Shown: positions 44,617 through 63,911, counted from the first letter of the stretch. The stretch is DNA of 64,000 bases from an uncultured Clostridia bacterium (GCA_934454215.1 CAKSGG010000004.1:16885-80884), one strand, 5' to 3'. The notes: generated from the letters alone by a model not told the origin. Program-made: numbers and translations.

Positions 44617-45792
44617 ATGAAGTTTACAGTAAACAGACGGGTTATGCTGGAACATCTGAAAACTATGATAAAGGTTGTTCCAAAGAATAGTCCGACACAG
44701 GAATTAAAAGGTTTTTTGATAGAGGCAAATGAGGATGACGGTTATTTGTATATGACGGCTAATAATCTTGAGGTTGCTATTCAGAGAAAACTTAAACCGA
44801 ATGTGGAAACAGGCGGTAATTTTGTTATGGAAGCAAAATTGTTGGTTGATATTCTCACACTTCTTGGCGGCGATGAAGTTACTTTTGAAGAAATCAAACC
44901 GGGGACAATAATTGTTAAATCGGGGAGTTGTGTGTATACATTAAGGATACTTAACGGTCGAACCTATCCCCGTCCTGAAATTCCATTTCCGGACACAACA
45001 GTTAATCTTTCCGACATTAAACAGATGTATTCAAAAACTTATGCAGCTGCGGGTGGAGATGTTACATCAGGTGTATTCATGGGTATTCATTTCAACATAA
45101 ATCCAAATGGATTCAGACTTGAAAGCTGCAACGCAAGAGATATTGCGATTGCAGAAAATAAAATGACTTGCGGAGGAAGTATGGATTTCACACTTTCAAA
45201 GCAGACAGTTTCATATCTTTCGGCAGCAGCCGGAAATGAAGGGGTCGAGGTCGGTACAAGTGGTCCTTTTGTAATTTTTATGAAGGAAGGAATGCTTTTC
45301 TCGGCAAAAAGAATTTCTTCGGAGTTTGTCGATGTAAATAAACTCTTAAATTCATTGGAGCCGGTTTATACTGCTGCACTTGAAGGAGAAAAGTTTAAGG
45401 AAGAAATACTTAATGCTTGTGATCTTGCTTCTATGGGAAAAGAAACCTCATATATAAAACTTGAATTCGGTGAAAATTCAATAGATTCCTCAACCGCAAA
45501 TGAGGTGGGGTCCGGAACAAACTATATCCCATGTGTTACAGTCAACAGTACATTCGGCTTATCCAATTATTATTCTGCGTCAGCACTTAAAAATGCGTTA
45601 AAAACGGTTGAAAACAGAATAATGCTTCAGCTTGATAAGCGGGGTTATATACTTCTTGAAGATGAATGTGATAAATTTATGATAACACCGATGTCGGATA
45701 TGGCAGTTCGTAATCAGCTTAAAAAGATTGAAGAACGGAAAACAAATGGAAAAAGCACCAAGTCAAAACAAAAAGTTTCGCAGGCGGCATAG
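44617..45792 (+). CDS. dnaN: DNA polymerase III beta sliding-clamp homologue
   Basis: 391 aa. The N-terminus 'MKFTVNRRVMLEHLKTMIKVVPKNSPTQELKGFLIEA...LYMTANNLEVAI' follows the DnaN pattern. Confidence 0.65.
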   Translation: MKFTVNRRVMLEHLKTMIKVVPKNSPTQELKGFLIEANEDDGYLYMTANNLEVAIQRKLKPNVETGGNFVMEAKLLVDILTLLGGDEVTFEEIKPGTIIVKSGSCVYTLRILNGRTYPRPEIPFPDTTVNLSDIKQMYSKTYAAAGGDVTSGVFMGIHFNINPNGFRLESCNARDIAIAENKMTCGGSMDFTLSKQTVSYLSAAAGNEGVEVGTSGPFVIFMKEGMLFSAKRISSEFVDVNKLLNSLEPVYTAALEGEKFKEEILNACDLASMGKETSYIKLEFGENSIDSSTANEVGSGTNYIPCVTVNSTFGLSNYYSASALKNALKTVENRIMLQLDKRGYILLEDECDKFMITPMSDMAVRNQLKKIEERKTNGKSTKSKQKVSQAA

Positions 45793-45803
45793 GAGGTGTG
45801 AAA

Positions 45804-46163
45804 TTGAAAAAACCTACTATTTGCCGATATTGCGGCGGGAAAATTATTTTAACGGACAGCAGCAAAATTTACGGGAAGGATTACGGTAGAATATATCTAT
45901 GTACCAATTGCAATGCTTTTGTCGGAGTACATAAGAAAAGCGACAAGCCTTTGGGGACTCTGGCAAACAGTATTTTGCGGATAAAACGCAAGGAAGCTCA
46001 TCAGGTATTCGATAAGTTTTGGAAAGACAGCAATATGTCAAGAACAGAAGGGTACAAATGGCTGTCAAAACAAATGGGATTGCCTTTTAAGGCTACTCAT
46101 ATTGGATATTTTGAGATTGAGGACTGCAATAGGGTAATTGATTTATGTAATAAAGCTGCATGA
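45804..46163 (+). CDS. Zinc-finger protein (DUF3268-like)
   Basis: 'CRYCGG...CTNCNAFVGVH'. The TTG at 45804 has better SD spacing than the GTG at 45798. Confidence 0.5.
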   Translation: MKKPTICRYCGGKIILTDSSKIYGKDYGRIYLCTNCNAFVGVHKKSDKPLGTLANSILRIKRKEAHQVFDKFWKDSNMSRTEGYKWLSKQMGLPFKATHIGYFEIEDCNRVIDLCNKAA

Positions 46164-46181
46164 TGAGGAGATGAAAATTTA

Positions 46182-46646
46182 ATGTCTAATATATGTGAAA
46201 ATGTATTACGAGTAACGGGCGAACATAGTGAAATAGTGCGCTTTGATGAAAAGTTCAGAGGCGGAAAAGAAAATAAGGAGAATTATAATTTTTCAAATCT
46301 TTATCCTCCGCCGGAACTTTCTATTTCCGAAAAATGCGAATGGTGCAGACAACACTGGAGCGTTAAAGGGAATTTTTACGAGGATTCTTTTGCAAAAGAT
46401 ACGCTGCGGGTAGATGAAATGGAAACATATTATTATTTTGATACTCCGTGGGTTGGTCCCGAAAAGTTAATACTTTATATTTCATCAGTATTTACCGAGC
46501 TTGACTTTATGCTTGTATCAAGTGAGCCGGGTAATGGTATAGGGGTACTGAAAGTGTATCGTAACGGTGAAGTAATATCTGATGAGGAGTTATCTAACGA
46601 GGACAAGTCGTATTGGTTTGGCGAAGATGAAAAAACAAGTGCTTAG
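46182..46646 (+). CDS. Hypothetical protein (possibly DUF1281/Api92-like)
   Basis: GAGGAG SD. The N-terminus 'NICENVLRVTGE' is reminiscent of that family, but the assignment is weak. Confidence 0.35.
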   Translation: MSNICENVLRVTGEHSEIVRFDEKFRGGKENKENYNFSNLYPPPELSISEKCEWCRQHWSVKGNFYEDSFAKDTLRVDEMETYYYFDTPWVGPEKLILYISSVFTELDFMLVSSEPGNGIGVLKVYRNGEVISDEELSNEDKSYWFGEDEKTSA

Positions 46647-46661
46647 AAATGGAGGAAAACT

Positions 46662-62518: not shown

Positions 62519-62536
62519 GAATTCAAAAAGGAGAAT

Positions 62537-62929
62537 ATGAAAATGTACGATGATGAAAGAGTTTTGGTATGTCAAAAGGAAATCAAACGGTTGAGACAGT
62601 GCGTAAGACAATACGAGGAAGAGCTTGAAAATATTCAGGGCAATATTGATAGTTGTGTGGTTTCAGATGAAATTTTCTCGCCGCAGAATTATCTTATGGT
62701 TGTAACCGGCAAGTGCTTTATTGTTAATGGGAGTGACGATATTGCAATTATAAAAAGCATTTTGAAACAAACCGGCAATGAGAAACTAAAAAGTTTTTCG
62801 TTGAATGAAATTTTTAAAGCAGCCTCAGGAAATTGCCGAGTTGTTTTGGTGGATTGTATGATTTATGACGATGCTCAGAACAAATTTATACACAAACTGC
62901 AATGGTTTGAGGTTAATAAACAAATATGA
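62537..62929 (+). CDS. Hypothetical protein
   Basis: AAGGAG SD. 130 aa. Confidence 0.5.
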   Translation: MKMYDDERVLVCQKEIKRLRQCVRQYEEELENIQGNIDSCVVSDEIFSPQNYLMVVTGKCFIVNGSDDIAIIKSILKQTGNEKLKSFSLNEIFKAASGNCRVVLVDCMIYDDAQNKFIHKLQWFEVNKQI

Positions 62930-62943
62930 TGGAGGAAATACAA

Positions 62944-63576
62944 ATGATATTAAAAAATGTAAATGATACAGTAGAGTATATGGGAAAGAGTTATTATGTT
63001 GGGGAGGATATTGTTGGAACATCTGAAAGCTTGTATGACGGATTGTTCGGTAATATTATTGAAATCCGTACCGATGCTGATAAGGAAACAGATAACCAAG
63101 CTCCGGACATTTATTGTGAATTTTATGCACCGGTATTCCCGGAGGAAGTAAAAAGGTTTGAAAATAAGGTTTCGTTGCTGCATGGGAAAGCGAAAACTCT
63201 TGGAGATATTGCGCTTGACCGAGTTGTTATGGCACCTGAGATGATAAAATTGCTTACGCAAAGCTCCGAGACACGAATGATACCTGTTTTTACGATTGAG
63301 GAAGACTGGGCAGCAGAAGATGATTACGGGCATTCAACCGAGGTTTACTTCGATTATGATTTGGCAAGAAAAAATCTTTGTAAAAAAATTTTGGAAGAAA
63401 AGCAAGATGGCTGTATCAAACAATGTGATGAGACAGAACTTGTAGAGGATTATGGCAATGATTATTATGAGGTTTATGAAGAAGGTTTTTACTCTGATAA
63501 ACATTACCTTGTATCTATCCAAAAACATGATGTGCCGATGAATGTTTCGGATATGGTTAAGTACATCAATAATTAA
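62944..63576 (+). CDS. Hypothetical acidic protein
   Basis: GGAGG SD before the ATG at 62944. Confidence 0.5.
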   Translation: MILKNVNDTVEYMGKSYYVGEDIVGTSESLYDGLFGNIIEIRTDADKETDNQAPDIYCEFYAPVFPEEVKRFENKVSLLHGKAKTLGDIALDRVVMAPEMIKLLTQSSETRMIPVFTIEEDWAAEDDYGHSTEVYFDYDLARKNLCKKILEEKQDGCIKQCDETELVEDYGNDYYEVYEEGFYSDKHYLVSIQKHDVPMNVSDMVKYINN

Positions 63577-63593
63577 ATCTGGGAGGTTAAAAT

Positions 63594-63911
63594 TTGTTGA
63601 TAAATGTAATTAGAGTTGCCGGCGATTCATCAAAACCAAATGTGGTAGAAATGGATACGGCATTTAACATCGGTGACAAATTTAAAATGGAATATGATTG
63701 GTGCAAACGGGTGCAATGTATGAATGGCTATAAGCCGCATTGGTATAAAGATGTTGCAGAATTTGAAGTTGTCAATATTGTATGCAATATGCTTATAAAT
63801 CCGCCCGAAGTCTGGGTTAGACTGCGTTCTTGTGATCAAGAATTTATTACAAGATGCGGCAGAGAATTTGACGCACCGGAATATCAGATTTTGCAAAGAA
63901 AAGTCGCTTAA
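63594..63911 (+). CDS. Hypothetical protein
   Basis: TTG start with GGGAGG SD. 105 aa. Confidence 0.45.
   Translation: MLINVIRVAGDSSKPNVVEMDTAFNIGDKFKMEYDWCKRVQCMNGYKPHWYKDVAEFEVVNIVCNMLINPPEVWVRLRSCDQEFITRCGREFDAPEYQILQRKVA

Follow-up and report, generated by a model that had tools for sequence, protein, structure and literature searches.

Ala-Ala tails on the replication and recombination proteins of a gut Clostridial megaplasmid, and a possible link to its PRTRC-like E1, E2 and JAB enzymes

Why do so many unrelated proteins, encoded side by side on one mobile element, end in two alanines? The question is raised by a 64,000-nucleotide stretch of DNA from an uncultured Clostridia bacterium (GCA_934454215.1 CAKSGG010000004.1:16885-80884), hereafter the window, which is part of a RepA_N megaplasmid of a gut Clostridial host and which from 41.5 kb onward carries a replication and recombination module with all genes on the + strand. 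The Ala-Ala end, or in a looser form a small terminal Ala or Gly, is interpreted here as a selected protein-level tag carried on flexible tails by at least ten unrelated proteins of Firmicute RepA_N-type megaplasmids. Three genes of the same module encode E1-like, E2-like and JAB enzymes, and it is tentatively proposed that the tails are handles for these enzymes.

Ala-Ala tails in the window and in its relatives

A first-pass annotation of the sequence had listed eight proteins ending in Ala-Ala. Calling of open reading frames (ORFs) has reproduced that list exactly, with all eight on the + strand between 44617 and 62473, and the four ends with a single Ala that had also been named (TSA, RVA, RLA and KVA) are present as well. 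The genes concerned are as follows, with positions in the window.

44617..45792, + strand: beta-clamp DnaN (Pfam DNA_pol3_beta), tail ..KVSQAA
45798..46163, + strand: DUF3268 zinc-finger protein (Pfam match), tail ..NKAA
46182..46646, + strand: DUF1281_C (Api92-like) protein (Pfam), tail ..KTSA
51336..51536, + strand: 66-amino-acid (aa) protein, final gene of its operon, tail ..ENAA
54584..54769, + strand: 61-aa protein, here called s61, directly 3' of the E1 gene, tail ..GRVA
54766..56133, + strand: DUF6094 methyltransferase, tail ..KRLA
56464..57066, + strand: acidic, mostly helical, fast-evolving 200-aa protein, here called X, abutting the E2 start, tail ..LEAA
57707..58585, + strand: Rad52/Rad22-family single-strand annealing protein (Pfam), tail ..YDIAA
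58601..60355, + strand: SMC/RecF-like ATPase, tail ..MKEAA
60357..61439, + strand: primase with CHC2 zinc finger and DUF3854 Toprim, tail ..ECAAA
61472..62473, + strand: DUF6744 protein, tail ..LGLAA
63594..63911, + strand: putative 105-codon ORF, tail ..RKVA

The true start of Rad52 is probably about 11 codons downstream of the ORF start, since its homologues are 281 aa long. The annotation had found no Ala-Ala end in 1–41 kb and had confined the excess to the module. Both statements hold, with 0/34 + strand ORFs tailed in 1–41 kb versus 8/25 in the module (Fisher p=4.9e-4). At an Ala frequency of 0.065 the expected rate of Ala-Ala ends is 0.0042, which gives a binomial p=1e-13 for 8/25. The excess is confirmed and is stronger than had been reported.

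Conservation of the tails has been followed in about 90 related loci, comprising one genome contig, plasmid and phage-database records, 80 metagenome loci picked by an alignment of E2, and three loci picked through Rad52 homologues without selection on E2. The nearest public relatives are a contig of an Eubacteriales metagenome-assembled genome, a 168-kb plasmid of Subdoligranulum variabile, and many human-gut metagenome contigs. Ala-Ala ends occur in 250/829 ORFs on the + strand of the relatives versus 6/286 on the - strand (p=5e-29). When the ORFs were clustered into families, and the 27 families that comprised four or more unique sequences were scored, 10/27 were mostly Ala-Ala-tailed and 11/27 had A or G as the terminal residue in most members. 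The counts are given below, those for X being of proteins at the orthologous position.

X: 59/64 AA
Rad52: 50/51 AA
SMC-like ATPase: 37/46 AA, 8 AG
Primase: 15/29 AA, 7 TA, 2 AG
DUF6744 protein: 17/27 AA, 7 CA, 2 VA
150-aa protein: 9/17 AA, 4 AG (the window copy ends ..EVI)
s61: 5/6 AA
Clamp family: 13/13 AA
Unnamed 249-aa family: 18/19 AA
Unnamed 111-aa family: 5/5 AA

Variant tails are AG, GG, TA, CA and VA, the final residue is almost always A or G, and the AG, GG, TA and CA variants persist within clades. Across families, K, E, S or Q predominates at position -3. Clamp homologues from other clades end in ..KAA or ..AAA in 13/13 cases, and the window clamp carries its tail on a Lys-rich C-terminal extension of about 30 residues after the canonical ..ITPM end. 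For Rad52, 118 of the 120 best database homologues (45–99% identical) end in Ala-Ala, with IAA in 99, LAA in 12 and MAA in 4. Orthologues of the 66-aa protein end in ..KKAA (L091) and ..SAV (L092). Among the clustered relatives an Ala-Ala tail was never found in the methyltransferase, 103-aa protein, SSB and VWA families, the methyltransferases ending in LS, LA or LG (0/51 AA).

A cause at the nucleotide level, in which GCGGCATAA would act as a signal in DNA or RNA, or would arise from Shine-Dalgarno (SD) sequences or stop-start coupling, the alanines being incidental, is very improbable. The observations behind it were reproduced. The same count of 6/8 tails with GCGGC(A/G)TA(A/G) was obtained, and the extended form GGAGGCGGCATAA occurs twice, immediately 5' of the starts at 57067 (TTG) and 60357 (GTG). 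At these two junctions, X/E2 and SMC/primase, the GGAGG of the next gene lies within the ..E-A codons, and in many relatives the X/E2 junction reads GGAGGCGGCATGA with an ATGA overlap. The earlier suggestion that the tail doubles as an SD thus stands at X/E2 and SMC/primase and falls at the other six tails of the window, where the next SD is 3' of the stop codon or no gene adjoins (e.g., a terminator follows the ORF ending at 51536). The SD constraint may account for Glu at -3 in both X and the SMC-like protein. The suggestion that GCGGCATAA is a recurrent functional motif is not borne out, as orthologues keep Ala-Ala through every synonymous codon, with all four GCN codons at both Ala positions and all three stop codons in use; Rad52 alone has nine codon/stop combinations. 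GCGGCA is a common in-frame Ala-Ala codon pair everywhere on this strand (47 occurrences), and GCGGCATAA, as judged from the sequences compared, is codon usage and not a DNA signal. With every Ala codon and every stop codon represented, the alignments indicate that selection on Ala-Ala acts on the protein and not on the DNA. A shared 3' cassette or repeat was also considered and rejected, the flanks of the eight stop codons being unrelated. The possibility that SD requirements fully explain the pattern, raised beforehand in the first-pass annotation, fails with SD overlap at two junctions only; as a general explanation it is effectively refuted by the codon and stop diversity and by the SD positions.

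The JAB, E1 and E2 enzymes beside the tails

The first-pass annotation had placed an E1/JAB pair beside the tailed proteins. The pair is present, and an E2-like gene accompanies it.

52428..53849, + strand: JAB/JAMM metallopeptidase, PRTRC_A-like, with a long N-terminal region (Pfam Prok-JAB)
53795..54571, + strand: E1-like adenylyltransferase, PRTRC ThiF-like (Pfam ThiF)
57067..57729, + strand: E2-like protein, Prok-E2_D / PRTRC_B-like (Pfam 26.2 bits, cut-off 25)

The module begins with an SNF2-like helicase, the DnaN clamp, the DUF3268 zinc finger, the DUF1281_C protein, a MoxR/SSB/VWA group and several small ORFs. It continues with JAB, the ThiF-type E1, s61, the DUF6094 methyltransferase, a 103-aa ORF, acidic X and the E2-like gene, and ends with Rad52, the SMC/RecF-like ATPase, the CHC2-Toprim primase and DUF6744. 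E1 and E2 are encoded by different genes, with about 2.5 kb between them. The JAB protein has about 330 uncharacterised N-terminal residues followed by an exact JAMM motif, in which E344 and H391-x-H393-x7-S401-xx-D404 are kept in at least 90% of 25 orthologues. E1 is a bare ThiF domain (240–260 aa) with a GxGxxG loop, D139/N140 and C147/C173/C206 in at least 90% of orthologues; its true start is probably downstream of 53795, since homologues are 238–242 aa long. In E2, C143 lies seven residues after FSN (FSN136) and is present in at least 90% of 77 unique sequences. By these motifs all three enzymes look catalytically competent.

The E2 family comprises 564 representative clusters at E<=1e-3. 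Single-protein scans returned one relative among genome contigs and none among viral contigs, and the E2 alignment returned one viral contig; a 7-sequence E2 alignment was set aside as too divergent. Long E2 representatives were considered as X-E2 fusions with an Ala-Ala junction and rejected, as they have other architectures. PADLOC gave no match for JAB, E2 or X, and for E1 it gave weak partial matches to E1-E2 (Cap2-type) models. A sequence search of the PDB gave none for E2 or JAB and a weak MccB match for E1. The best NCBIfam matches are PRTRC_A for JAB (51 bits vs a cut-off of 101.8), PRTRC_ThiF (TIGR03736) for E1 (93 vs 144.75) and PRTRC_B for E2 (22.5 vs 131), all below cut-off. With the window E1, tblastn has retrieved Proteobacterial plasmid genes annotated as 'PRTRC system ThiF family protein', e.g., on Pseudomonas aeruginosa megaplasmids. 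These matches suggest that the triad is a distant Firmicute relative of the ParB-related, ThiF-related cassette (PRTRC), class 6d of Iyer et al. (2006).

Iyer, Burroughs and Aravind have described class 6d, which corresponds to PRTRC (TIGR03734-03742), as containing a ubiquitin-like protein (Ubl), an E1, an E2, a JAB that carries an N-terminal domain, and a helical protein that evolves fast, and have reported it also from B. cereus/B. thuringiensis plasmids (PMC1779556). The function of PRTRC is unknown (PMC3318190). The likeness of the module to PRTRC lies in a separate JAB extended at its N-terminus, a ThiF-type E1 of small size, an E2-like protein in which a Cys is conserved, an adjoining fast-evolving helical protein, and a location on a plasmid or integrative and conjugative element beside dnaN, recA and parB-type genes. 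In the canonical cassette of P. aeruginosa the order is ParB-E-C-JAB-B-ThiF, whereas in the window it is JAB-E1 ... X-E2 with the methyltransferase in between. Neither a Prok_Ub protein (PRTRC_C) nor a PRTRC ParB is detectable in the module; no ParB was found at 41.5–64 kb, where the window ends, and in the relative L091 a ParB_N gene is located some 8 kb downstream of the module. The canonical PRTRC_C (70 aa, Pfam Prok_Ub 2.8e-18) ends in Gly (..FGDKG) among neighbours with ordinary ends, whereas here some ten families end in Ala-Ala.

The usual E1 substrate thus appears to be missing, because the triad is PRTRC-like, canonical PRTRC has a Prok_Ub, and none is detectable in the window or in its Firmicute relatives. 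No small ORF of the window has a Pfam match to Prok_Ub even at E<=10, and phmmer of PRTRC_C against all six-frame fragments returned only the self-match. Two neighbours of the enzymes have been examined as candidates. The gene for s61 overlaps an antisense 62-codon ORF (54602-54790, the two together spanning 54584-54790) that a longest-ORF caller prefers; s61 is taken to be the real gene, because it is conserved in 13 database homologues. Its conservation extends over the closer relatives, and in more distant clades no homologue was detected. Its tail is ..[GR]RAA in relatives, recalling the ..RGG end of ubiquitin, and GRVA in the window copy and in a 98%-identical relative. The AlphaFold2 (AF2) model of s61 has a three-stranded beta sheet and a disordered 14-residue tail, at a predicted local distance difference test (pLDDT) score of 74. 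As a putative beta-grasp Ubl/Prok_Ub it finds no Pfam match, no Foldseek match in the PDB below E=0.07 and a probability of 0.3% in hhalign with PRTRC_C. X was rejected as a Ubl on an AF2 model that is helical, of low confidence (pLDDT 52) and with a disordered tail; no fold search was made. X evolves fast, as judged from its having only three sequence homologues, and its last 30 residues are highly conserved despite this.

The tail of E2 itself has also been compared. In one abundant gut clade (L039, L045, L047, L060, L064, L066 and similar loci, with E2 at ~10001-10630) E2 ends in ..IGG, which accounts for 32/78 unique E2 sequences, and JAB ends in ..GAG; otherwise the tails of the 87 full-length E2 representatives are diverse.

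Possible readers of the tails

A precedent for conjugation of an enzyme through its own tail exists in the type II class of antiphage signaling systems based on cyclic oligonucleotides (CBASS). Cap2 adenylates and conjugates the disordered tail of a CD-NTase ending in Gly or Ala, and this last residue is conserved only in the presence of Cap2 and Cap3, the penultimate residue being variable (PMC10097602; 10.1101/2022.03.31.486616). An Ala-ended cGAS is also conjugated (PMC10097602). Type II CBASS resembles the module in having E1/E2 and JAB with no Ubl, and in using as donor an enzyme that is not a Ubl and has a disordered C-terminus with Gly or Ala as its last residue. It differs in that Cap2 is an E2-E1 fusion whereas the two are separate genes here, in having one substrate and not some ten candidates, in its setting (a defence island and not plasmid replication and recombination), and in its CD-NTase: domain scans of the module found no CD-NTase/nucleotidyltransferase and no effector.

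By this analogy the Ala-Ala tails may be handles for the E1, E2 and JAB of the module, a reading that we favour tentatively and to which we give somewhat less than an even chance. It takes its start from what was directly observed, namely the tails and the conservation of their amino acids, their synteny with E1, E2 and JAB, the intact catalytic motifs and the lack of a detectable Prok_Ub; from these we infer the biochemical steps and the identity of the target. E1 would adenylate the terminal carboxylate of a tailed protein, which would then pass via Cys thioesters on E1 and on E2, and its C-terminus would be ligated to an amine that might belong to a second plasmid protein, to a host protein or to something else. 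The JAMM peptidase would reverse the linkage. The scheme would parallel the action of Cap2 and Cap3 on the Gly/Ala terminus of the CD-NTase, but with many substrates and no dedicated Ubl. In a more specific version, which we regard as possible but hold with greater reserve, E1 and E2 would activate about ten Ala-Ala C-termini and ligate the enzymes to each other or to host proteins, with reversal by JAMM; the clamp, primase, Rad52 and SMC-like ATPase would themselves act as ubiquitin, which would generalise the single-substrate case of cGAS/Cap2. The handle reading is favoured because the Ubl normal for this type of cassette is missing, because the proteins welded to E1 (s61) and to E2 (X) carry the tag, because the tail variants are small residues with a terminal A or G as in the CD-NTase rule, and because every Ala-Ala-rich lineage seen carries the triad. 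The tails are also concentrated on genes interleaved with JAB-E1-...-E2, and the models suggest that they are accessible (low AF2 pLDDT in X and s61, and the 30-residue extension of the clamp).

Three lineages were found to have modules rich in Ala-Ala ends, namely the gut clade of Oscillospiraceae/Eubacteriales, Butyrivibrio pNP144 (Rad52, helicase and others) and, more weakly, a 235-kb plasmid of B. thuringiensis, on which PHP, DnaE, RecA, Thg1-like and SLOG proteins have such ends (6/60 ORFs). In triad plasmids of Cytobacillus (..KVAA), Priestia (..QTA) and Planococcus (..QPA), only Rad52 ends in Ala. Several observations weigh against the tails being handles for E1, E2 and JAB. Type E plasmids of C. 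botulinum carry a homologous Rad52/SMC/primase/clamp module with 0/42 Ala-Ala tails, and they have E2 and E1 about 55 kb from it, with no JAMM peptidase found. In the canonical PRTRC of the P. aeruginosa megaplasmid the neighbouring dnaN and recA products have ordinary ends. The presence of E1 and E2 therefore does not imply Ala-Ala tails, since both kinds of plasmid have the enzymes without them, and no truly E1/E2-free homologous module was found among the plasmids compared. E1 enzymes normally recognise the body of a Ubl, and on the models a beta-grasp fold is not demonstrable in s61 or X; X lacks the Ala-Ala end in two close relatives. Also unfavourable are the I/L/M-A-A ends of the closest Rad52 homologues, which are like the ..LAA of the ssrA degron, and the finding for Bil that its beta-grasp Ubl needs a terminal Gly and that a trailing Ala prevents adenylation (PMC10557695). 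Two sets of control plasmids were tried and rejected. The plasmids of C. botulinum and C. beijerinckii (L088, L089) were taken as E1/E2-negative until those of C. botulinum were found to carry E2 and E1, and so serve as controls only for a triad without Ala-Ala tails; Selenomonas pSRC4 has no triad in 38 kb and a Rad52 ending in ..GIAL, but is a phage-like plasmid with a different module.

The first-pass annotation had preferred a degron, and had called the idea of E1/JAB substrates the more speculative. In our judgement that idea is at least as likely as a ClpXP degron, because of the Cap2/CD-NTase precedent (PMC10097602) and because no Prok_Ub is found here. As a degron for ClpXP or another AAA+ protease, the tail would expose the replication and recombination proteins to constant host turnover and keep them low or transient, and E1/E2/JAB would be unrelated. 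We consider this a serious alternative, if a rather doubtful one. ClpXP directly recognises both ssrA ..ALAA and the poly-Ala tails made by RqcH, a Firmicute pathway (PMC10591846, PMC8373112), and the module shares with these a free Ala-Ala on flexible, accessible extensions. The explanation is simpler and needs no new biochemistry, the background avoids such ends in the other half of the window and on the opposite strand in relatives, and the plasmids with E2/E1 but without tails mean that the two features can be uncoupled. The tails differ from ssrA and Ala tails in being genome-encoded on native proteins and not added to failed products, and in their sequence. A hydrophobic -3, as in ..LAA, is found in 115/120 of the Rad52 homologues, whereas most other families have K, E, S or Q there, usually charged, and AG, GG, TA and CA variants are kept in clades. 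A degron leaves unexplained this interchange of A and G, the frequent charge at -3, the tag on the small proteins glued to E1 and E2, and the triad in every Ala-Ala-rich lineage. The methyltransferase, a natural candidate for an 'early' protein, is never tailed, and the plasmids of C. botulinum and C. beijerinckii have orthologous modules without tails. Their hosts also have ClpXP. The degron and handle readings are compatible and may coexist.

The tails may alternatively be docking signals for some other reader, which we consider unlikely. This would be either an adaptor of the module (the N-terminal region of JAB, X, or MoxR/VWA), which would mark tailed proteins for modification or assemble them into a complex, or a type IV secretion system that translocates them into recipients. 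In other systems, primases and SSB-like proteins are transferred conjugatively into recipients. The module encodes MoxR, VWA and the JAB with its long N-terminal region, the plasmid has a type IV coupling protein, and eukaryotic Ala-tail readers that feed ubiquitylation, Pirh2 and KLHDC10, have been described (PMC10591846). No C-terminal peptide-binding domain was identified, MoxR and VWA have been sampled in few loci, and the C. beijerinckii plasmid has a coupling protein and the homologous module but no Ala-Ala tails.

Two bacterial ubiquitination systems resemble the triad in having an E1, an E2 and a deconjugating peptidase together on mobile DNA, namely Bil (BilABCD) and Bub (6E). The E1 of Bil has a Prok-E2_C domain, whereas the window E1 is a bare ThiF and no beta-grasp protein was found with it. 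Bub has been reported to use an E1 and an E2 without catalytic Cys, oxyesters and a DUF6527 protease (PMC11601596); the window E1 and E2 keep their conserved Cys, and the peptidase is a JAMM and not DUF6527.

A full-text literature search found neither a description of the Ala-Ala tail pattern nor one of substrates of PRTRC. The cassette family is known, and a variant without ubiquitin and with a multi-protein Ala-Ala tag appears to be new. PRTRC/6d-type cassettes are widespread, being carried by megaplasmids in Pseudomonas, Vibrio, the Bacillus cereus group and gut Clostridia, and since 2006 neither a substrate nor a function has been known for them; a tag of two residues on about ten neighbours, conserved and easily mutated, would give a direct experimental handle on their targets. 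If the tailed proteins serve as substrates of E1, enzymes would be acting as ubiquitin-like modifiers for the second time, after cGAS/Cap2, and with multiple substrates for the first time, and this would tie ubiquitin-like chemistry to plasmid replication and recombination and not to phage defence. If they are ClpXP degrons, host proteolysis would be hard-wired into a whole mobile-element module in an unusually systematic way. Either outcome would be informative on the establishment of gut megaplasmids and on the control they exert over their replication proteins.

Other genes of the plasmid and further cassettes

The assignment to a RepA_N megaplasmid rests on the plasmid genes in 1–41 kb, which include a type IV coupling protein, a RepA_N initiator, a resolvase and a tyrosine recombinase, together with surface proteins and large peptidases as cargo. 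Part of this cargo is a type VII-secretion-like cluster (8070-35196) with an EssC-type 1510-aa FtsK/SpoIIIE ATPase carrying an FHA domain (14437-18969), a second FHA protein, two Ser/Thr kinases (8070, 26608), a PP2C phosphatase (12806), SLH and Cu_amine_oxidN1 surface proteins and a subtilase (29959). Directly upstream of the replication module, at 35228-41220, are genes for a 1509-aa protein with an N-terminal clostripain (Peptidase_C11) and for a 488-aa protein with a weak Peptidase_MA_2 match. No tRNA or transfer-messenger RNA (tmRNA) was found in a search of the window.

Within the module, an SSB gene is flanked by a MoxR-type AAA+ ATPase (bpMoxR domain) and a VWA protein (46662-50152), an arrangement kept in the relatives L012, L013 and L091. 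A strong terminator-like hairpin (51553-51583, a 13-bp stem with a T run) lies 3' of the 66-aa ..ENAA gene and is followed by about 340 nt of non-coding DNA up to the gene of the 150-aa protein; the interval 51553-51918 is probably an operon boundary and promoter region within the module. The next gene is listed below.

51919..52371, + strand: 150-aa protein with a weak NCBIfam sigma-70 match, tail ..EVI

Its sigma-70/extracytoplasmic function (ECF)-like match to TIGR02937 (22.9 bits) is below cut-off, and the protein might be a module-specific transcription factor. A sigma-factor-like gene is also found near the canonical P. aeruginosa PRTRC. Between the methyltransferase and X, the 103-aa protein (56142-56453) has an aromatic/Cys C-terminus (..FC, ..FF, ..FY or ..FI) and never a terminal A in 33 unique sequences, and so presents a second conserved C-terminal signature in the module.

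Further arrangements of the cassette have been noted in relatives. In L064 (4372-6357) the E1 frame runs without a stop into the clamp gene for 662 codons, either through a natural fusion of E1 and clamp or through an error of assembly. The type E neurotoxin plasmid pFI1111E1 of C. botulinum (L098) has a minimal cassette at 19716-22075, consisting of E2, a 138-aa protein ending in ..YAKG, E1 and a 90-aa protein ending in ..RGYA, with a type I-B CRISPR-Cas locus and an operon for CBASS close by. The B. thuringiensis plasmid pAM65-52-3-235K (L094) has two E2/E1 cassettes (7549-10592 and 35075-37161), the second with a 158-aa protein ending in ..AKNG between E2 and E1.

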